DNA of 32,473 nt, from the IMG/VR virus record IMGVR_UViG_3300045988_153444. The stretch is one strand, 5' to 3'. Below are positions 1 through 27,669 of this stretch, piece after piece; position 1 is the first letter of the stretch; each line of letters opens with the position of its first letter. The notes beneath the pieces are model-generated. The model saw only the letters and a list, made by a program, of their open reading frames with translations, ran no database searches and was not told the origin of the DNA. This DNA is from a virus. Lineage: Duplodnaviria; Heunggongvirae; Uroviricota; Caudoviricetes. The position numbers and the translations under genes were made by a program.

Positions 1-2
1 AT

Positions 3-98
3 ATTTATATAAAAAGTGCTTTGCAGGTGGGAAAAAATTTCCTATGATTATACCCGAAACCGAGCGATACCCGCCCTGGTTAAACCGGAGATAACCCG
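3..98 (+). promoter_or_regulatory. Promoter/5'UTR module, copy 1 of a duplicated ~88-bp upstream region (copy 2 at 31290-31383)
   Basis: Read directly: near-identical sequence ...tttatataaaaagNgctttRcaggtgggaaaaaatttcctatg(a)ttatacccgaaaccgagcgatacccgccctggttaaaccggaga precedes ATG 99 and ATG 31384. Contains -35-like TTGCAG, -10-like TATGAT and a GGAG about 8 nt before the ATG. Promoter role is inferred. Confidence 0.5.
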
Positions 99-368
99 AT
101 GAAAGTACAAGACCGTGAAGTAGTAAAAAACCTCCTGCAATACCTGACCTCAAAAAACCTGACGGGCAGCGTTGAGTACCGTGAAGCGTTAAAACATTTC
201 AACGTCACTACGGTTTATCGTTGGGAAAACAAACATTCTGAAAGACCGTATGTGGTGGATGTTTTTGCGCCTGATATTGAGTGCGGTTTTGAGCGCCATT
301 CATTCAAAAAGAAACATTCCGCTGATGTTTTTTGTGAGGTTGTATGTGCGGCAGGAGATGATGAGTGA
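99..368 (+). CDS. Hypothetical protein (89 aa)
   Basis: ORF with GGAG 8 nt upstream of ATG; stop overlaps the next ORF start (coupled). No recognisable family motif. Confidence 0.5.
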   Translation: MKVQDREVVKNLLQYLTSKNLTGSVEYREALKHFNVTTVYRWENKHSERPYVVDVFAPDIECGFERHSFKKKHSADVFCEVVCAAGDDE

Positions 369-1972: not shown

Positions 1973-2596
1973 ATGACAAAACATCTTAATGTGGTTTCTT
2001 TACCACTTTCTGTGTTGATTGGTTATGAAAAGAACGCTCGCACACACTCCGTGGAGCAGGTAGATCAGATTGTTGCCAGCATACAGGAGTACGGATGGAC
2101 TAATCCGATCCTGATAGACGAGAACAACGTTGTAATTGCTGGTCATGGTCGAATTGCTGCGGCCACTCAGTTGGGGATGGATGATGTTCCCTGCATTGTT
2201 CTGGCTGGGCTAACGGAGAATCAGAAGAAGGCATATCGTCTGGCCGACAACCGTATTCCGCTGAATGCTGGTTGGGATGAAGAGTTGTTAAGCGCGGAGC
2301 TTGCAGATCTTGCGGCCGATGATTTTGCTCTGGACTCAATTGGTTTTACTCAGCGCGAACTGGATAACTTATTGAGTGCGGCGGTCTACGATGACACAGA
2401 GGGTATGGATATCCCATTTGAGAAGGATGAGGCCAAATCAGGCGTAAAAGTTCAGTACCTGTCATTTGGAGGTCATAAAATCCCGGCAACGGATGAGGAA
2501 GCGGATCGTTTTGACTGCGCGGTGTCTCGTTATGTTGATGATAATGGCAGCTATATCGGATTTGTATCCGCATTGCTGGCTGGGGAGGTGTGCTGA
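1973..2596 (+). CDS. ParB-like nuclease (ParB N-terminal) domain protein
   Basis: ParB/Srx-type N-terminal pattern (…NPILIDENNVVIAGHGRIAAATQLGMDDVPCIVL…KKAYRLADN…). Paralog of the 5262-5852 product. Confidence 0.8.
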   Translation: MTKHLNVVSLPLSVLIGYEKNARTHSVEQVDQIVASIQEYGWTNPILIDENNVVIAGHGRIAAATQLGMDDVPCIVLAGLTENQKKAYRLADNRIPLNAGWDEELLSAELADLAADDFALDSIGFTQRELDNLLSAAVYDDTEGMDIPFEKDEAKSGVKVQYLSFGGHKIPATDEEADRFDCAVSRYVDDNGSYIGFVSALLAGEVC

Positions 2597-3969
2597 TGCT
2601 TCACCTGAATTACGACATAACGCACCTACGCGGCGCGGAATATAACCCGCGTTTTATCGGTGAGGATGATCTTGCGAGGCTGGCGGAAAGCGTCAGGGAG
2701 CTGGGGCTTGTGAAGCCATTGATAGTGCGCGGCGATTTGCTGGTGGCGGGACACCAAAGGACGAAGGCGCTACGTAAGTTGGGAATAACGCGTGCTGCGG
2801 TGTATGTGTTGCCCTGTGAAACGACGGTATACGACGAAGTACGGTTTAACCAACTGCATAACGGAACGGATTTTGATAGCGGAGATGAGCGTTGCAGGGT
2901 GTCCGGTCTGGAAGATAAGCATGGTTTTGTTCAGGTATCGGCAAGCCAGATCTCAGGCAATATGCGCGCGAAAATGGCATATGTTCGAAAGAACATAGCG
3001 GAACTGGTTATCAAGTATGGTCCGTGGGGTGGTTGTGTTGCTACTCAGTCTGGTGAGGTTATTCACTGTGCTCAGTATGCATTAGCAGCGAAAATGACGC
3101 GCACACCGCTAACGGTGTTTGTGATCCCTGATGTTGAGAAGGAAAAATACCAAAGTTATCTGAATAAAACTTATGGTGTATTTGAGTATTCTCATCTGGA
3201 GAAAACAACATACATCCAGACGTATGCGCAGCTTATGCGGTTGCGTAATGGTGGCAGCCTGAAATCAAACCTGTATGAGTCGTTGATCCTCCCGATCATT
3301 GCCAAGACGCCAAGAGGAATTGATTTTGGTTCGGGGCAGGGAGACTACGCGCGAATGCTCAGGGCAAAGGGATATAACCTGCATGATCTCGAGCTTTTCC
3401 GCCGTAAGGGCGCTGGAAACACTCTGGATAGGACCGCAACAAACCGGATGATTGATACGCTGGTGGACGACTTAAAAACGCGAGGGCGTTACGACTACGT
3501 GATTTGCGATAGCGTTTTGAACTCGGTCGATAGTGTCGAGGCTGAATGGTCTGTTCTGACGGTTCTGAAAGGCCTGTGTAAAGCTGGTGGGTCAATATTC
3601 TTTTCTGGTCGTAGCCGTGGAGAGCTGGAAACAGTCCTGAAGCAAACACAAGCGGCGAGTTCCAAAAGCCGGCTTTATTTTATTGATCATAACGGTTTTA
3701 CCGCGTTGTACCGGAAGGGGCACTGGTTTTACCAGAAGTTTCACTCTGATGATGAAGTGAAGCAGTTGTGTCGTGTACATGGTTTCAGGATTAAGCGGTC
3801 AATATTCAACTGTAAGAGCTGGTATTTGCACGTCATTAACGATGATTCCCTTAGTTGGGCGAGTCTGGAGAAAGCTGTTCGTTTTGAGTTTGAGTTGCCG
3901 TTGCCTGGTGGTTCAACAATCGGACGATCTGATGATGTGCTGGCGGCTTTCCGGCCGCTGATTAAGTAG
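2596..3969 (+). CDS. ParB-like N-terminal domain fused to a class I SAM-dependent methyltransferase fold
   Basis: N-terminus KPLIVRGDLLVAGHQRTKALRKLG (ParB-like). C-terminal half has motif I IDFGSGQGDY, an acidic post-I residue (HDLE), YDYVICDSVL and GGSIFFSG. No (D/N/S)PP(Y/F/W) amino-methyltransferase motif was found. ATG 2596 overlaps the upstream stop (TGATG) with GGGGAGG SD. Confidence 0.75.
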   Translation: MLHLNYDITHLRGAEYNPRFIGEDDLARLAESVRELGLVKPLIVRGDLLVAGHQRTKALRKLGITRAAVYVLPCETTVYDEVRFNQLHNGTDFDSGDERCRVSGLEDKHGFVQVSASQISGNMRAKMAYVRKNIAELVIKYGPWGGCVATQSGEVIHCAQYALAAKMTRTPLTVFVIPDVEKEKYQSYLNKTYGVFEYSHLEKTTYIQTYAQLMRLRNGGSLKSNLYESLILPIIAKTPRGIDFGSGQGDYARMLRAKGYNLHDLELFRRKGAGNTLDRTATNRMIDTLVDDLKTRGRYDYVICDSVLNSVDSVEAEWSVLTVLKGLCKAGGSIFFSGRSRGELETVLKQTQAASSKSRLYFIDHNGFTALYRKGHWFYQKFHSDDEVKQLCRVHGFRIKRSIFNCKSWYLHVINDDSLSWASLEKAVRFEFELPLPGGSTIGRSDDVLAAFRPLIK

Positions 3970-5261: not shown

Positions 5262-5852
5262 ATGGCTCTAAAAATCGAATATTTACCAGTCGGTAAGTTG
5301 CTCAGATATGCCAAAAATTCACGGACTCATTCAGATGAGCAAGTTGAACAGTTGGTGAACAGTATCCGTGAGTTCGGTTTCACTAATCCTGTGCTGATCG
5401 ATGAAAAGAATGAACTGATTGCGGGGCATGGGCGGCTTGCAGCAGCCGAAATTCTGGAAATGGATAAAGTTCCGGCGATTCGGTTGAGTAACCTTTCTGA
5501 AAAACAGAAGAAGGCTTACAGGATTGCAGATAACAAGCTGGCCTTAAATGCTGGCTGGGATATGCAGCTTCTGGCCGAAGAAGTCAAAGAGTTAATGGAT
5601 GATGATTTTGATATTGATCTGCTTGGGTTTAATGATGCAGAGCTTGACGAAATGTTAAGCGATGAACAGCCGCAGGAAGAAGACGATAATTCTTCCCCTG
5701 TTGTTCAAATTAAGTACCTGGCTATTGATAAAGAACGTATTCCCGCGACGGATATGGAAATTGCATTGTTGCTGGATGTTTATCGTCAGTACCACGACGC
5801 GCATGAAACGCATGAGGGATTTGTTCAGTATCTTGCTAATGGTTGCAAGTAA
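5262..5852 (+). CDS. ParB-like nuclease domain protein (paralog of 1973-2596)
   Basis: …NPVLIDEKNELIAGHGRLAAAEILEMDKVPAIRL…KKAYRIADN…; collinear similarity to the first ParB-like protein. Confidence 0.8.
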   Translation: MALKIEYLPVGKLLRYAKNSRTHSDEQVEQLVNSIREFGFTNPVLIDEKNELIAGHGRLAAAEILEMDKVPAIRLSNLSEKQKKAYRIADNKLALNAGWDMQLLAEEVKELMDDDFDIDLLGFNDAELDEMLSDEQPQEEDDNSSPVVQIKYLAIDKERIPATDMEIALLLDVYRQYHDAHETHEGFVQYLANGCK

Positions 5853-16557: not shown

Positions 16558-19350
16558 ATGGCCAGCAATAAGAACTTTAAGCTGGCTTTTGAAATTGGCG
16601 GCAAAGTTGCCGCCTCTCTCCCCAAAAGTTTTACTACAGCTAATCAGGCTGTTGCTAAATTAAATGCCGAGCTTGCTGGATTAACGAAAGAACATGGGGA
16701 AATTCAAAAGCTACAATCTGTAAAAGTAAAGGTTGGACAGACTGCCCTCGAATATCATAAAGCTGCCGCTCGCGTTGAAGAGTTACAGAAGCAAATAAAA
16801 AACACGGCCAATCCAACCAGAGCGATGCTTCGTGACTTTGAGAAGGCAAAAACACATTCATCGAATTTACGAGCATCACTACGTTCTCAGCGTGAAGAAC
16901 TGGCCGCTTTAAAGTCTGCCTATCAGGGAGCTGATACATCTGCCAGAGCTTTGGCCTCAAGAGAGAAAGAGCTTAAAGCCAGCATTGATCGTAATCGTGA
17001 GGCTCAGGCCCGTAGCGTTGAGCAGGTTAACCGCTACAGAACGGCTTTGGCTTTAGCCAGAGCAAATGTTCAGCAAGTGAAAAAACAGCAGGAGGAACTT
17101 AACCGGGCATTAGAAAAACAACGTATTGATAAAATTAACAGCTATAAAAATGCGTTGGCTGAAGCACGGAAAAATGTTCTTGCAGTAAAACGTGCTCAGG
17201 AGGAGTTAAACCGCGCGTTGGAAAGGCAGCGTGAATTGAAGCGAGAGCATCTTGGTGAGGCAAAGAGTCAACTTGTAAGGTCAGGATTACAAACTGGTGC
17301 TGTAGCGGCTGGTGCATTTGCTGCTGCTAACAATGCAGCAAATTTCAATCGTGAAAACAAAATGATTGGTCTTACGGCAGATATGAAGCCGGAAGAAGTT
17401 CAGGCGATGGGGCAGGCGATGCTTGTTACCGGAACGGCTACCAACCAGTTTGCATCTGATATTCAGGCCGCTCAGGGTTTTCTCGTCGCTGCTGGGCAGG
17501 ATTATAAAGAGGCTCAGGCGAATCTACTAACTATTGGGCGAACAGCTACAGCTACTGGCTCTGATATCCTCGATGTCTCGAAAGCATCATTTACATTAAG
17601 TGACTCATTGAAGATTGATCCATCTCAAATGAAGTCTGCAATGGGGATTCTGGTTCAGGCAGGGAAAGAGGGGAACTTTGAATTTAAAGATATGGCCAAA
17701 AATCTTCCTGTGCTTGGTGCTCAGTTCCAGGCATTAAAAATGGGAGGTAAAGAAGCAGCCGCGACGATGGGTGCAGCTTTGCAGATAGCTCGCAAGGGGG
17801 CTGCAACTTCGGATGAGGCTGCTAATAATATGAACAACTTTTTGGCAAAAATACTTTCCCCTGAAACACTAAAAAAAGCAAAGAAAAATTTCGGTGTAGA
17901 TTTATATAAAATTGTTACAACAGCGCAGAAAAAAGGGAAGAATCCATTCGAAGCTGCAATGCATTCTGTCATGAAAATGACTAAGAACGGAGATCAGAAG
18001 TTACTTGGTGAACTATTTGGCGATATGCAGGTTCAGAACTTTGTTCGTCCGATGATTCAAAACTGGAAGGAATACCAGAGAATCAAAGCAACATCTCTTG
18101 GAGCTGGAAGTGCTGTTATTGACCGCGATTTTGCCAACATAACGAAAGATAATGCGGAGCGATTGAAACAATTACGTATTCAGGCTAGCAATGCATCATT
18201 AAGTTTTGGTCAGGCCTTGCAACCTGCTTTGAATGCCGCGCTTAGTGTTTTGGTTCCGCTGATTACAAAAATTAGTGAATTTGTAGCTAACAACCCCAAT
18301 TTTGTGTCTCAGATAGTGATGGCGGCAGGTGCGTTTCTAACCATGAAAAGTGTGGTTATAGCGTGTAGGGTAGCTATGCTGGCTTTATCTGTAGCGACAA
18401 AGCTAACACCCTTCGGGTGGATTCAGATGGCTATATCTGCGCTGGTTGCCGCAGGAATATTGCTCTATCAGAATTGGGATAAGATCAGAGATTATGCTGT
18501 CAGAGTTTGGCCTTCTGTTAAGGAATATACAGTTAAATCATTTGAGGCTATAAAAAACTTTATCTTAAACTTTGACCTCAATGGATGGATTATATCTATG
18601 TTTGGTAAAGCATGGGATTATCTTTCCAACATAAACTGGAGTTCGGCAGGTGTAAGAATTTACAGTACATTAATTAGTGCTTTTAAATGGATGTCTCCGC
18701 TTCCGTTCTTAATTAAAGCATTTAAAATTACAACAAATTACCTTTCTGGCATTAACTGGAGCGAAACAGGAAAGAAAATCATAGATACACTGGTATCTGT
18801 TTTTATGCGTTTTTCACCAGTTGGACTCTTTATAAGAGCATTCCAATCTGTAACGACTTATTTATCTGGAATAAACTGGAGTGAGTCAGGCGCAAAAATA
18901 ATTGAGACGTTAATCACTGGGATAAAATCAAAAGCAAATGCTTTAATTAATGAAGTGAAAGGCGTTTTTTCTTCTGTACGTGAGTATTTACCGTTCTCTG
19001 ACGCGAAAAAAGGTCCATTCTCACAGCTAACAAAGTCAGGTGGTGCAATAATGACTACTCTGGCATCAGGTGTTAGCAGGAATAACAGCTTACAGAATGC
19101 AATAGCAAGCAAGTTCGGGCAATCAAATTTATCACCTCACGGGATATCTGCCGCCGGGACTTCTGGACCTCGCCAGAACGTTAACGCTGTGACTGGTGGA
19201 ATAACCTATTCACCTGTAATCAATCTTCCGGCTGGTTCACCAAAGGAAACTGAGGCGGCAGCTAAAAGAGCATTAGATGCGGGATATTCTGATTTTGAGA
19301 AGAAATTGAGTGCTCATATGTTCCAACAACGGAGATTAAGTTTTGGATGA
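16558..19350 (+). CDS. Tail tape measure protein
   Basis: 930 aa; coiled-coil N-terminal half with repeated …QEELNRALE(K/R)QR… units; hydrophobic middle; C-terminal tandem YLSGINWSE(T/S)G.KII(D/E)TL repeats. Confidence 0.9.
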   Translation: MASNKNFKLAFEIGGKVAASLPKSFTTANQAVAKLNAELAGLTKEHGEIQKLQSVKVKVGQTALEYHKAAARVEELQKQIKNTANPTRAMLRDFEKAKTHSSNLRASLRSQREELAALKSAYQGADTSARALASREKELKASIDRNREAQARSVEQVNRYRTALALARANVQQVKKQQEELNRALEKQRIDKINSYKNALAEARKNVLAVKRAQEELNRALERQRELKREHLGEAKSQLVRSGLQTGAVAAGAFAAANNAANFNRENKMIGLTADMKPEEVQAMGQAMLVTGTATNQFASDIQAAQGFLVAAGQDYKEAQANLLTIGRTATATGSDILDVSKASFTLSDSLKIDPSQMKSAMGILVQAGKEGNFEFKDMAKNLPVLGAQFQALKMGGKEAAATMGAALQIARKGAATSDEAANNMNNFLAKILSPETLKKAKKNFGVDLYKIVTTAQKKGKNPFEAAMHSVMKMTKNGDQKLLGELFGDMQVQNFVRPMIQNWKEYQRIKATSLGAGSAVIDRDFANITKDNAERLKQLRIQASNASLSFGQALQPALNAALSVLVPLITKISEFVANNPNFVSQIVMAAGAFLTMKSVVIACRVAMLALSVATKLTPFGWIQMAISALVAAGILLYQNWDKIRDYAVRVWPSVKEYTVKSFEAIKNFILNFDLNGWIISMFGKAWDYLSNINWSSAGVRIYSTLISAFKWMSPLPFLIKAFKITTNYLSGINWSETGKKIIDTLVSVFMRFSPVGLFIRAFQSVTTYLSGINWSESGAKIIETLITGIKSKANALINEVKGVFSSVREYLPFSDAKKGPFSQLTKSGGAIMTTLASGVSRNNSLQNAIASKFGQSNLSPHGISAAGTSGPRQNVNAVTGGITYSPVINLPAGSPKETEAAAKRALDAGYSDFEKKLSAHMFQQRRLSFG

Positions 19351-23678: not shown

Positions 23679-26525
23679 GTGAGTAAATTATTATTTACGA
23701 TGACTGACGCCGGGCGTAAGGCGCTGGTTAATGCCAACAAGACTGGAACAAATAAAGTTGAGATCGTTTCTGTTGGTTTAGGTAGTAGATATTATGCCAC
23801 ATCAACCACACAAACAAAAATAACAGATGAAATAAAGCGACTTACCACAATAGGAGGCAAAGTCGTTTCTCCTGATACCATTCATGTAACTGCGAAGGAT
23901 GATAGTAAAGATGAGTATGTTGTCCATACAATAGGTTTGTATACAAATAAAGGAACATTGTTTGCTGTATACTCGCAAGAACAAGTAATAATAAATAAAG
24001 TATCTTCTACAATTGCTTTAATATCAAGTGATATAGCAATTAAAAATCTTGATACTAAAAACATTACATTTGGTGATGTTGAGTTTATTAACCCTCCCGC
24101 AACCGAAACTGTTGTTGGAGTAGCAAGATTTGCTAATGAACAAGAAATTGATGCAGGTACAGATGATTCCCTGGCTGTTTCAGCAAAGCGGCTTAAGCAA
24201 GCTATTGTAAAACATGAGCAATCACGTAATCATCCTGATGCAACTTTAACATCAAAAGGCATTGTTCAACTCAGTAATGCCACCAATAGCACGTCTGAAA
24301 AGCTCGCAGCGACGCCTAAGGCTGTTAAGGCTGCATATGACCTGGCTGACGGAAAATATACCGCCCAGAATGCCACCACGGCACAAAAAGGGATAGTTCA
24401 GCTCAGTAGTGCCACTAACAGTACGTCTGAAACGCAGGCGGCAACGCCAAAAGCGGTCAAGGCAGCAAATGACAACGCAAATTCACGTCTGGCGAAAAAT
24501 CAGAACGGTGCAGATATCCAGGATAAATCAGCTTTTCTGGACAATGTTGGCGTTACCAGCCTGACGTTTATGAAAAACAATGGCGAAATGCCGCTTGATG
24601 CTGATCTGAATACGTTTGGTCCTGTTAAGGCTTATTCAGGTATCTGGTCTAAAGCAACATCCACCAACGCAACACTGGAGAAAAATTTCCCGGAAGATAA
24701 TGCTGTCGGTGTGCTTGAGGTTTTTGCTGCCGGCAATTTTGCAGGTACGCAACGCTTTACCACGAGAGACGGCAATGTATACATGCGTAAACTCGCCAAT
24801 AAGTGGAATGGCACTGATGGTCCGTGGGGCGTATGGCGTCACACTCAATCTGCTACCCGCCCTTTGAGTACGACTATAGACCTGAATACGCTTGGAGCCG
24901 CCGAGCATCTTGGTTTATGGCGTAACAGTAGCTCAGCTATAGCTTCATATGAACGCAATTATCCAGAGGAAGGCGGCTTTGCTCAGGGGATGCTTGAGAT
25001 CCTCGAAGGCGGAAATTATGGAAGAACGCAACGTTATACCACTCGCCGTGGAAATATGTATGTCCGCTGTCTTGCGGCAAGCTGGGATGCATCAAATCCG
25101 CAGTGGGAACCGTGGTTAAGAGTCGGTCATCAGTCAGAGAGTCGTTATTACGAAGGTGATTTGAATGATGTAACCTCACCAGGTATTTACAGCGTTACAG
25201 GTAAAGCGACCAACGGTCCAGTACTGGACGGAAACGGCGTGACTGTACTCGGCATTCTGGAAGTGTTGAGGCGGTTTGATGGTGTTAATGTATGGCAGCG
25301 TTATACAACTGCCGGAACAGGTACAACCCTTAAAGGCCGCACCTTTGAGCGCGTCTTTACCGGCAGCTCATGGAGCGAATGGCGGGAAGTCTACACCTCG
25401 TATTCACTTCCCCTGAATCTGGGTATCGGCGGTGCTGTGGCAAAGCTCACCAGCCTGGACTGGCAGACCTACGATTTTGTGCCGGGCAGTCTGATAACCG
25501 TTCGGCTTGATAACATGACCAATATTCCCGACGGTATGGACTGGGGCGTCATTGATGGCAACCTGATAAACATCTCAGTCGGTCCGAGTGATGATTCTGG
25601 TTCGGGACGCTCAATGCATGTATGGCGCAGCACTGTAAGTAAAGCCAACTACCGCTTTTTTATGGTTCGCATTTCAGGAAATCCGGGAAGCCGCACGATC
25701 ACGACAAGACGTGTGCCAATTATCGACGAAGCTCAGACATGGATGGCGAAACAGACATTCAGCGGTGGTCTTTCAGGCGAACTATCCGGCAATGCTGCTA
25801 CAGCAACAAAGCTGAAAACGGCAAGGACAATTAACGGCGTAAAATTTGACGGCTCGGCAAATATTGAAGCGTTTCCGCCAGGTGTTCCGCTGCCGTGGCC
25901 ATCAGATACGCCACCTGCAGGTTATGCAATCATGCAGGGGCAGACGTTTGATAAGGCAGCATATCCGAAACTGGCTATTGCCTATCCTTCTGGTGTTATT
26001 CCAGATATGCGCGGCTGGACAATCAAGGGCAAACCCGCCAGTGGTCGGGCCGTATTGTCTCAGGAACAGGATGGCATTAAATCGCACACCCACAGTGCCA
26101 GCGCATCCAGTACGGATTTGGGTACGAAAACCACATCGTCGTTTGATTACGGTACTAAATCAACGAATAACACAGGTGCACATACCCACAATGTATCTGG
26201 TACTGCAAATAGTGCTGGCGCACATACTCATACCGTTCCATTAAGGAGACCAAACAGTGGCGGTATGAATTTCGACTGGCTGGATGGTTCATCAAGTGGC
26301 ACGGTGGTGGGGAATGGAACTGTGCCTTCTTCTGGCGCACATACCCACTCAGTATCAGGTACCGCTACAAGTGCTGGGGCACATGCACACACTGTTGGTA
26401 TTGGCGCTCATACGCACTCTGTTAAGATTGGTTCACATGGACACACCATCACCGTTAACGCTGCTGGTAACGCGGAAAACACCGTTAAAAACATCGCATT
26501 TAATTATATTGTGAGGCTTGCATAA
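23679..26525 (+). CDS. Tail fibre protein
   Basis: 948 aa; GTG start with AAGGA SD; repeated TNSTSE…[10 protein letters not shown] units; C-terminal His-rich GAHTH/GAHAH repeats typical of side-tail-fibre tips. Confidence 0.85.
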
Positions 26526-27142
26526 TGGCATTCAGAATGAGTGAACAATCACGTACCGTAAAAATTTATAACCTGCTGGCCGGAACTAATGAGTTTATTG
26601 GTGAAGGTGACGCATATATTCCATCTCATACAGGGCTGCCAGCTAATTCTACAGATATCGCCCCACCGGAAATTCCTGCTGGCTTTGTGGCAGTTTTTAA
26701 CAGTGAAAATGAATCGTGGAATATTGTTGAAGACCATCGTGGTAAAACGGTCTATGACGTGGCGTCGGGGGACGCATTGTTTATTTCTGAACTCGGACCG
26801 CTACCAGAGAATGTCACCTGGTTGTCGCCAGCAGGGGAGTATCAGAAGTGGGACGGCGTATCCTGGGTGAATGATGAGGAAGCAGAAAAACTGTTTCGGA
26901 TACGGGAAGCGGAAGAGAAAAAGGCAAGGTTGATCCAGGAAGCAACAGATAACATCGCAATTCTGCAGGATGCAGTTAATCTTGAAATAGCAACAAACGA
27001 GGAAAATTCACAACTGGATTCCTGGAGAAAATACAGAGTATTAGTGAGTAGAATTGACACCAGTACAGCTCCGGATATCGTATGGCCAGAGCTGATGAAT
27101 CAGGGTTATGTTCGGGAGGACGAGCAGATAACTTCAGACTGA
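26525..27142 (+). CDS. Tail fibre assembly protein (Tfa/chaperone)
   Basis: 205 aa immediately after the fibre gene; C-terminal …[23 protein letters not shown]… motif typical of Tfa proteins. Confidence 0.8.
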
Positions 27143-27669
27143 AATTTAGTGATGAATGTTGAATCATCAGGAATATCATGCAATACCAATGCATGAGCAC
27201 CTATTGTGACATTGTTTCCTATACGCACTTTGCCACCAAGAATGGTGGCATTACAACCAATGGTCACATTATGCCCTATAACAATATCCATATCATTAAA
27301 TTCCCCGCGAAGTCCAATAGTTACTCCGGGCTTAATTGAACAATTTTCACCGATTGTTACTTTGTGACCGATAACAACACTGTTGAGATAAGAAATATCA
27401 AAGCCTTTCCCTATATTTACAGTTAAAGGGACTGTTACATTATATTTATCAAGAATGAAACGTTCTATTTTTCCCGCAATCTTCCGACAGTATCCGCCTT
27501 TATCAAAAAGGTATTTGGCTATGCGCCACCAAAATAAATAACGAACCCTTCTATGTTTTATTGCGCGAACAATTGCCTTTCGCCAGGAGAAAGGACGCTC
27601 GCTACCGATTACTTCATAGTGAATACAGTCTTTAAGTTCATTAATATTCATATCTTTATTATTCAGCAT
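27106..27669 (-). CDS. Hexapeptide-repeat (left-handed beta-helix) acetyltransferase, WcaB/CysE-like
   Basis: Tandem hexapeptide repeats ([22 protein letters not shown]…[34 protein letters not shown]); convergent with and overlapping the tfa 3' end by 37 nt. Confidence 0.8.

Follow-up and report, generated by a model that had tools for sequence, protein, structure and literature searches.

Why should two unrelated genes at the two ends of one stretch of viral DNA begin with almost the same promoter and leader? The stretch is IMG/VR record IMGVR_UViG_3300045988_153444 (Caudoviricetes), 32,473 nucleotides (nt) long and referred to here, at its full length, as the window; the repeat precedes open reading frames (ORFs) starting at positions 99 and 31384. 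Quite probably, as judged from sequence comparisons, the repeat is a KorC-type repressible promoter cassette, a set of strong promoters that would be shut by a KorC-like repressor.

A repeated promoter-leader cassette in a phage-plasmid

Alignment of window positions 1-140 with 31270-31420, together with repeat-finder families D3 and D11, gives ~97% identity between copy A (3-91) and copy B (31290-31377), and BLAST of one copy against the other gives 96.6% over 89 nt. The differences are substitutions at copy-A positions 2, 17 and 23 and a single 1-nt indel at position 47. An earlier interpretation made from the letters alone (the sequence-only reading) had placed the identity of 3-90 and 31290-31376 at ~95%, with three substitutions and one indel, and the alignment confirms the two copies. 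A 21-mer taken from the cassette core occurs twice in the window against 0.00 occurrences expected from shuffles. The likeness ends at GGAGA, 7-8 nt ahead of the ATGs at 99 and 31384 rather than the 8-10 nt first estimated, and the ORFs 3' of the two copies are mutually unrelated, as that reading held. It had also described a module of ~88 base pairs (bp). The repeat is real, and its full unit is ~115 bp: in copy B and in relatives ~22 further conserved nt, beginning TCATAGAATTATATAATTATA, lie 5' of the 88-bp core, so copy A is truncated at the window edge with the loss of ~22 nt.

The order of elements within the cassette is AT-rich direct repeats, -35, a 17-bp dyad (T[A/G]GGAAA-N3-TTTCCTA), -10, a leader hairpin and a GGAG ribosome-binding site. 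The dyad fills the 17-nt promoter spacer, and its final 2 nt are the first 2 nt of the -10. The elements of the two window copies are listed below; the rest of copy A's upstream part lies outside the window.

1-12, + strand: copy A, last 12 nt of the second AT-rich direct repeat, ATAKATTTATATAA (alignment with copy B and three Yersinia phage copies; motif scan)
20-25, + strand: copy A, -35 TTTGCA (TTTACA in most copies), aligning with TTGACA of the IncP-1 klcA/kleA promoters (promoter scan)
28-44, + strand: copy A, 17-bp dyad TGGGAAAaaaTTTCCTA, proposed KorC-type operator (motif counts; position and form in IncP-1)
43-48, + strand: copy A, -10 TATGAT (promoter scan)
58-81, + strand: copy A, leader hairpin AACCG.AGCG-AUACC-CGC..UGGUU, ~3 nt after the predicted transcription start (folding, RNAalifold, pair counts)
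87-90, + strand: copy A, Shine-Dalgarno GGAG within the invariant block AAACCGGAGA that forms the repeat end (alignments)
31270-31299, + strand: copy B, two 14-bp direct repeats ATAGAWTTATATAA with a 16-bp period, 5' of the -35 (motif scan)
31307-31335, + strand: copy B promoter, with -35 TTTACA at 31307-31312, dyad at 31315-31331 and -10 TATGTT at 31330-31335 (promoter scan, motif counts)
31344-31367, + strand: copy B, leader hairpin (folding, RNAalifold, pair counts)
31373-31376, + strand: copy B, Shine-Dalgarno GGAG (alignment)

The element that carries these copies is identified by its relatives and its gene content. The window is 96-99% identical to Yersinia phages vB_YpM_39, 41 and 44, which have 49-kb circular genomes, and it also matches non-mobilisable plasmids of 47-52 kb from E. 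coli, E. albertii, E. fergusonii, Salmonella and Klebsiella. Its genes include those for terminase, portal, capsid, sheath, tape-measure and tail-fibre proteins. As these virion genes stand together with an IncFII-type RepA and a higBA toxin-antitoxin pair, the host element is a phage-plasmid, and specifically a roughly 48-kb (47-52 kb) enterobacterial IncFII-RepA myovirus phage-plasmid.

A search of relatives for more copies, which the sequence-only reading had advised, found three cassettes in each of the three Yersinia phage genomes, three on plasmid NZ_CP009073.1 of E. coli ATCC 25922, and 190 places in 65 PLSDB records, about three copies each, with three in most of these plasmids. The family is present in 100 of 5,426 complete E. 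coli genomes (~1.8%), with a median of three places per genome. The count of two copies thus holds for the window, and the family normally has three plus the regulator's own operator, described below. In complete relatives position R1 lies 3' of higBA, ahead of a 126-amino-acid (aa) ORF and a 90-aa XRE-type regulator; R2 lies 3' of the early operon, ahead of the gene for a DUF3560 protein and the genes after it; and R3 lies 3' of an MT-A70 methyltransferase gene, ahead of an 89-aa ORF (window 99-368) and a 66-aa ORF. The two window copies had been thought to lie at opposite ends of an accessory region; this is not so, as virion genes, repA and higBA lie between them.

The dyad, a KorC-like protein and the IncP-1 connection

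The repeat finder (I19) also pairs the cassette dyad with a site at 29707-29728, outside the cassettes and ahead of the following genes.

29702-29730, + strand: korC-like promoter, TTGCCA, 17-nt spacer and TACCAT, with a perfect dyad TAGGAAAagaTTTCCTA at 29710-29726, in the same place as in the cassettes
29757-30044, + strand: korC-like gene, encoding a 95-aa helix-turn-helix (HTH) protein that is proposed to repress both the cassettes and its own promoter
30068-30331, + strand: 87-aa ORF 3' of the korC-like gene, phrog_4595, probably in the same operon

The window therefore has three dyad sites (28-44, 31315-31331 and 29710-29726), giving six strand-matches against 0.01 expected. When at most one mismatch is allowed, the dyad occurs exactly four times per genome, in the three cassettes and the korC-like promoter, in the E. 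coli, Yersinia-phage and Salmonella members alike. All four dyads are perfect palindromes in Salmonella-type members, with the arms kept while the central 3 nt and the flanks differ; in E. coli-type genomes the sole perfect dyad is that of the korC-like promoter. This perfect dyad at the regulator's promoter is kept even in relatives in which the regulator is just 69-72% identical. The higBA promoter (30514-30568; TTGAAA, 17 nt, TATAGT) has two copies of another palindrome, of the form ATAAnCnACAGGTTAT (ATAACCCACAGGTTAT and ATAAACTACAGGTTAT), which are presumably HigA operators distinct from the cassette dyad.

The korC-like gene and the 87-aa ORF are conserved as a pair in relatives. By BLASTP the 95-aa protein is 53% identical, over nearly its full length, to the annotated KorC of IncP-1 plasmid pA1 (E 3e-24), and tblastn against plasmids finds genes annotated 'transcriptional repressor KorC', with 3,928 matching records in all. 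The protein has nothing above the Pfam/NCBIfam cut-offs, and its close family comprises only 15 clusters. The most distant family member (52% identity) is encoded in an IncP-1-type backbone directly 3' of klcA-klcB and 5' of kleE-korA-incC-korB, and thus sits in the korC position. In the PDB the HTH of the 95-aa protein matches the DNA-binding domain of AcrIF24 (E 1.4e-5) and Aca3 (E 0.016), which suggests that the KorC and Aca repressors are related.

The kinship extends to the promoters. The DNA ahead of IncP-1 klcA and kleA can be aligned with the cassette all the way from the -35 to the ATG (AAAGTGCTTGACAGG versus AAAGTGCTTTACAGG), the pA1 kleA side reading AAAGTGCTTGACAGGcTAGGGCATTTTGCCCTAATAT...GGCCGGGCAtaccGCCCAGGTC...ACCGGAGAaagtCCGATG and the phage-plasmid side AAAGTGCTTTACAGG-TGGGAAAAAATTTCCTATGGT...AACCGAGCGatacCCGCCCTGGTT..ACCGGAGAtaacCCGATG. 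Across the IncP-1 kil-kor regulon (RK2/RP4, R751, pA1) the nucleotide homology runs from the -35 AAAGTGCTTKACAGG to the ribosome-binding site. These promoters have a 17-bp 7-N3-7 spacer palindrome, TAGGGCAttttGCCCTA (TAGG...CCTA), placed as in the cassette and overlapping the -10, which starts at the palindrome's last TA. The klcA/kleA leaders likewise form a hairpin followed by ACCGGAGA-N4-CCGATG, the unit is repeated ahead of different operons, and the same replicon encodes a KorC-family repressor. At pA1 klcA and kleA a KorA operator (consensus GTTTAGCTAAAC; PMC2665229) adjoins the palindrome, with a KorB operator further upstream. KorC of RP4 regulates the klcA, kleA and kleC promoters (PMC12365149), and klcA, which is repressed by KorA and KorC, is induced ~120-220-fold in new transconjugants (PMC7314908); between them the two papers name KorA and KorC as repressors of kleA and kleC as well.

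With the leader left unconstrained, a scan for the promoter pattern gave 32 genome and 22 viral loci. In 28 of the 32 genome loci the stretch examined includes a korC homologue; of the other four, one (L056) is on the same contig as another locus (L041). Matches L034 and L053 were discarded as chance, their 17-mer not being an operator-type palindrome and no korC being nearby; L062, whose 17-mer is no palindrome and which also has no korC nearby, was discarded likewise. Comparison of 28 IncP-1-type loci and the phage-plasmid loci, covering three half-site variants and three KorC lineages, indicates that the half-site tracks the KorC lineage: TAGGGCA/TAGGACA goes with pA1-like KorC, TAGGACA in both arms with a ~86%-identical KorC, and TAGGAAA with the phage-plasmid KorC. 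Within the IncP-1 type, the lineage whose KorC is ~86% identical to that of pA1 has the operator TAGGACAaaaTGTCCTA, and the lineage with a 96-97%-identical KorC has TAGGGCAaaaTGCCCTA or else a hybrid operator that combines an arm of either kind. This TAGGACAaaaTGTCCTA/TAGGGCAaaaTGCCCTA split is, to judge from these loci, a small-scale joint change of repressor and operator.

Leader hairpin, exchange between copies and neighbouring genes

The sequence-only reading had noted that conservation runs through the whole leader and not just the -35 and -10. The likeness does continue to GGAGA, and within lineages the stems of the leader hairpin are invariant. Folding of the leader, which it had also recommended, places this hairpin at 58-81 (folding z-score -2.4) and 31344-31367. 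The leader forms a single hairpin of 8-9 bp with no T-run, and the Shine-Dalgarno is left unpaired. We collected 27 distinct leaders and aligned 17 of them, for which RNAalifold predicts the same hairpin as was drawn by eye. The resulting structure pairs 91.9% of cells; sliding the partners by 1-3 columns lowers this to 14-51%. At two pairs both sides have changed in a compensatory way (A-U to G-C and G-C to A-U). No stem column varies in either group: 0 of 16 against 18 of 39 other columns for IncP-1 (Fisher p = 5e-4), and 0 of 16 against 17 of 39 for the phage-plasmids (p = 1e-3). The leader varies in its loop, at the very start of the transcript and in the stretch that separates the ribosome-binding site from the ATG. 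Because the helix is kept, compensatory changes occur and the stem columns are invariant, the hairpin stems are, on the evidence of these alignments, under purifying selection. Rfam has no match at gathering thresholds in the whole window, and positions 1-200 give only chance-level snoRNA matches (E at least 0.15). An antitermination RNA like HK022 put was considered and rejected, the leader having a single short hairpin rather than two stem-loops and no Rfam match.

The copies within a genome have evolved together. Identity is 92-98% among the cassettes of one genome but 86-92% when E. coli-type and Salmonella-type elements are compared position by position, and this excess of within-genome over between-lineage identity implies concerted evolution. 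Exchange between copies is also indicated by the R3 gene (start MKVQD), which has the R2-type spacer AATCTG instead of TAACCCG at three loci (L008, 17462; L013, 16883; L070, 30).

Copy B is composite in its setting. Comparison of window 31237-31400 with 27416-27605 and 36980-37168 of a related phage genome (L001) identifies it as the upstream flank of R1, with the higBA terminator, joined to the R2 gene for the DUF3560 protein. Relative to every relative examined ~9.5 kb is missing here, comprising the R1 operon, an ORF6N/Rha-type gene, parA, a CI-like repressor and the early operon. The junction of higA, cassette and DUF3560 gene was found in none of 132 plasmids, 100 E. coli genomes and 20 contig contexts, and nowhere in IMG/VR. 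As far as GGAGA, copy B matches R1 of plasmid CP088577.1 at 99.1% identity, placing any crossover near the cassette 3' end. The window begins inside one AT-rich cluster and ends 13 nt short of another, which suggests that it is a whole short-read contig. The copy-B junction is either a real deletion by cassette recombination or an assembly collapse. Of the earlier caution that the duplication might be artefactual, only the part concerning context survives: the surroundings of copy B are anomalous, and the repeat, with its three copies in relatives, is no artefact.

Separately, the finished circular plasmid NZ_CP024829.1 (pCREC-544_3, 32,182 bp) has a single cassette (R1) and no repressor, early, lysis or R2-R3 regions. 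It is a deletion derivative, and large deletions therefore occur in the phage-plasmid family.

The genes driven by the two window cassettes and the features that bound them are as follows.

99-368, + strand: first copy-A gene, 89-aa protein, phrog_6143 (ORF list, PHROGs)
365-565, + strand: second gene of the copy-A operon, 66 aa, overlapping the first by 4 nt (ORF list)
587-610, + strand: terminator-like hairpin and T-run closing the copy-A operon (terminator scan)
28136-29113: IncFII-type RepA gene
30570-31222: higBA toxin-antitoxin pair
31237-31259, + strand: higBA terminator, the upstream boundary of copy B (terminator scan)
31384-32451, + strand: copy-B gene, 355-aa DUF3560 protein (Pfam PF12083, E 3.7e-31)

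Given the terminator at 31237-31259, copy B is insulated from upstream transcription. Pfam, NCBIfam and PHROGs are uninformative on the function of ORF 99-368, whose homologue family comprises 11 clusters, and its AlphaFold model (predicted local distance difference test 81) has no Foldseek match at E <= 0.001 in PDB or BFVD. PDB sequence searches with the DUF3560 protein and the R1 126-aa protein gave no matches, and no cassette-driven protein matches Pfam Antirestrict. The exact window DUF3560 protein occurs in 1,769 collection blocks and the HigA antitoxin of the family in 5,982.

The ATAGAWTTATATAA repeats upstream of the -35 may be an UP element or a site for a second regulator. The same sequence (core palindrome TTATATAA) clusters on both sides of the parA promoter in the related genome (L001 33193-33287), which has further intergenic sites at 32485, 38239-38266 and 42932-42961. 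It could be the site of a partition/centromere-binding protein, in a role like that of the KorB operator, or merely an UP element.

Other parts of the window call for brief mention. Three ParB_N-domain proteins are encoded 3' of R3 (1973-2596, 2590-3969 and 5262-5852), one of them fused to a methyltransferase domain; in relatives the MT-A70 gene directly precedes R3, and these proteins may have DNA-modification or anti-restriction functions. A consensus DnaA box, TTATCCACA, at 29255-29263 lies 3' of the IncFII-type repA in AT-rich surroundings (29150-29700) that are probably the plasmid replication origin, and nearby CTTTACAGG (29231-29239) equals the cassette -35 region, possibly by chance. 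A gene for a hexapeptide-repeat acetyltransferase (27106-27669, - strand) adjoins the tail-fibre genes, an arrangement shared with plasmid CP088577.1. In the Yersinia phage and other relatives the corresponding region, from the tail-fibre genes to repA, holds a Hin-type invertase and alternative tail-fibre segments instead (L001 21749-23874). In-frame direct repeats occur in the tape-measure gene (three units with 120-nt spacing, 18618-18899) and in the tail-fibre gene (132-nt and 159-nt spacing; 24254-24473 and 26175-26396).

Proposed regulation, its rivals and known systems

The sequence-only reading had seen in the repeat a regulatory module common to two unrelated genes, working either as a regulator's binding site or as a leader RNA. 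Both elements are present, and we infer the regulation from homology. In the mechanism we propose, the 95-aa KorC-like protein would bind T[A/G]GGAAA-N3-TTTCCTA as a dimer. Since this dyad occupies the whole spacer between -35 and -10 and runs into the -10, the bound dimer would keep RNA polymerase off all three cassettes, and the protein would likewise shut down its own promoter. If RP4 klcA is a guide, entry into a repressor-free cell would set off a burst of transcription from these promoters, with silencing to follow in the plasmid-prophage state. The shared stem-loop would give the three transcripts the same 5' end and the same translation-initiation context. In E. coli, mRNAs can be stabilised by a 5'-terminal stem-loop, and such stabilisation is the most likely role of the hairpin, although this is the weakest step of the scheme and a best guess. 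In addition, the near-identical cassette copies recombine among themselves.

Several points weigh against this account. Transcription from the cassette promoters and binding of the 95-aa protein are both predictions. The burst on entry is an analogy, as the products of the cassette-driven genes have no similarity to KlcA/KleA, only the first few codons being alike. Neither the KorA operator nor the KorB operator (TTTAGCSGCTAAA) is present in the window, the Yersinia phage genome or the Salmonella plasmid, so regulation may differ from that in IncP-1. The identification of the IncP-1 palindrome as the RK2-type KorC operator is a likely one, backed only by its place beside the KorA operators at these loci. 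The covariation evidence for the hairpin comes from ~three independent lineages and is correspondingly modest. Finally, there is a second candidate regulator, the 90-aa XRE protein of the R1 operon.

That candidate leads to the idea that the KorC-like protein is irrelevant and that the dyad is bound by another regulator, either the 90-aa XRE/RstR-like protein, feeding back on all three cassettes, or HigA. The R1 operon does encode an HTH_3 protein (Pfam E 6e-7; RstR-like), and HigA is encoded directly 5' of R1. This is difficult to reconcile with the distinct palindromes of the higBA promoter, with a perfect dyad in the korC-like gene's promoter that is kept alongside 69-72%-identical regulators, and with the homology of the cassette to IncP-1 KorC-controlled promoters, whose half-site shifts with the KorC lineage; we regard it as unlikely. 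We give about the same low weight to the leader RNA as the main point of control, whether as attenuator, riboswitch-like sensor or target of an antisense or small RNA. The leader is indeed conserved between lineages with KorC just ~53% identical, the stems being invariant and the loop variable. Against this stand the single 8-9 bp hairpin with no T-run, the unpaired Shine-Dalgarno and the absence of an Rfam match, and a loop sequence that varies freely argues against loop-specific recognition.

The copies might also be recent duplicates of a strong promoter kept alike solely by gene conversion, with no control in trans and a functionless leader. Concerted evolution (92-98% identity within genomes against 86-92% between) and the swapped spacers would be expected on this basis, but it explains neither the same architecture and hairpin in IncP-1 plasmids nor a fourth dyad in an otherwise unrelated promoter, and variation avoids the stems and dyad arms. 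We think it very improbable. Least credible of all is that the duplication is an assembly or duplication artefact. The copy-B junction is unique to the window, and both window ends lie at or near AT-rich clusters, as if contigs had broken at repeats; yet three copies are present in finished plasmids and phage genomes from many laboratories, leaving only the copy-B context in doubt. Control by a KorC-like repressor is thus the reading that we carry forward. A wider version of it, in which we place rather little confidence, is that a portable promoter-operator-leader unit is common to IncP-1 plasmids and enterobacterial phage-plasmids. The hairpin might then be an uncharacterised cis-acting RNA element of all KorC-controlled transcripts, KorC might shut off an establishment or anti-defence burst in the manner of Aca, and the copies might be recombination sites that swap genes and yield deletions such as that in the window.

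Among phage systems the Aca repressors offer one parallel, the KorC-like HTH matching the sequences of Aca3 and of the AcrIF24 HTH. Aca circuits begin with a strong promoter that is active upon entry, and a small repressor encoded alongside then closes it by binding an inverted repeat. The KorC-like repressor differs in being encoded at a separate locus and in facing several promoters, and an anti-defence role of the cassette-driven genes is hypothetical. The PeSL cassettes of T4-type phages are short repeated units of promoter and hairpin; lying on either side of variable genes, they provide sites at which recombination reshuffles genes. The present cassettes resemble them in behaviour, given their concerted evolution, their exchanged spacers and a deletion of 9.5 kb that may have arisen between copies. 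In sequence the two are unrelated, PeSLs are not known to carry a repressor operator, and only three copies occur in the phage-plasmid. In phage-plasmid P1 a single plasmid-prophage repressor (C1) governs scattered promoters by way of a recurring 17-bp operator. That operator is asymmetric, C1 is not known to be related to KorC, and the P1 promoters are not known to share a leader.

The closest parallels are in conjugative plasmids, where KorC circuits have been studied in IncP-1, IncU and IncL/M; a full-text literature search found no paper describing the present phage-plasmid regulon, and one for the operator sequence gave nothing relevant. In IncU plasmid RA3, KorC is a global regulator, a small HTH repressor acting over several backbone promoters (PMC7414963), and in pOXA-48 (IncL) a KorC site is predicted between the -35 and -10 of its own operon (PMC12365149). 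The comparison with these two systems concerns the regulator and the position of its site rather than the operator sequence, and identity is lower, Klebsiella plasmids of pOXA-48 size matching at ~34%. From the IncP-1 kil-kor regulon the phage-plasmid differs in its half-site (TAGGAAA rather than TAGGGCA or TAGGACA), in its 17-nt spacer (18 nt in pA1-type promoters), in having AT-rich direct repeats in place of the KorA/KorB operators, and in a korC-like gene with its own operator-bearing promoter rather than one at the end of the klcA operon. What sets the present case apart is its host, a phage-plasmid instead of a conjugative plasmid, together with the altered half-site, the lack of KorA/KorB co-operators and downstream genes unrelated to those for KlcA/KleA. 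The comparison also brings out an overlooked conserved hairpin in KorC-controlled leaders, those of the RK2/RP4 group included, and provides a concrete, testable regulon for a family with genes almost all annotated 'hypothetical'. Recognisable in the DNA itself and present three times, the same promoter-operator-leader unit links conjugative plasmids with a widespread E. coli phage-plasmid, classes of element that are usually treated apart.

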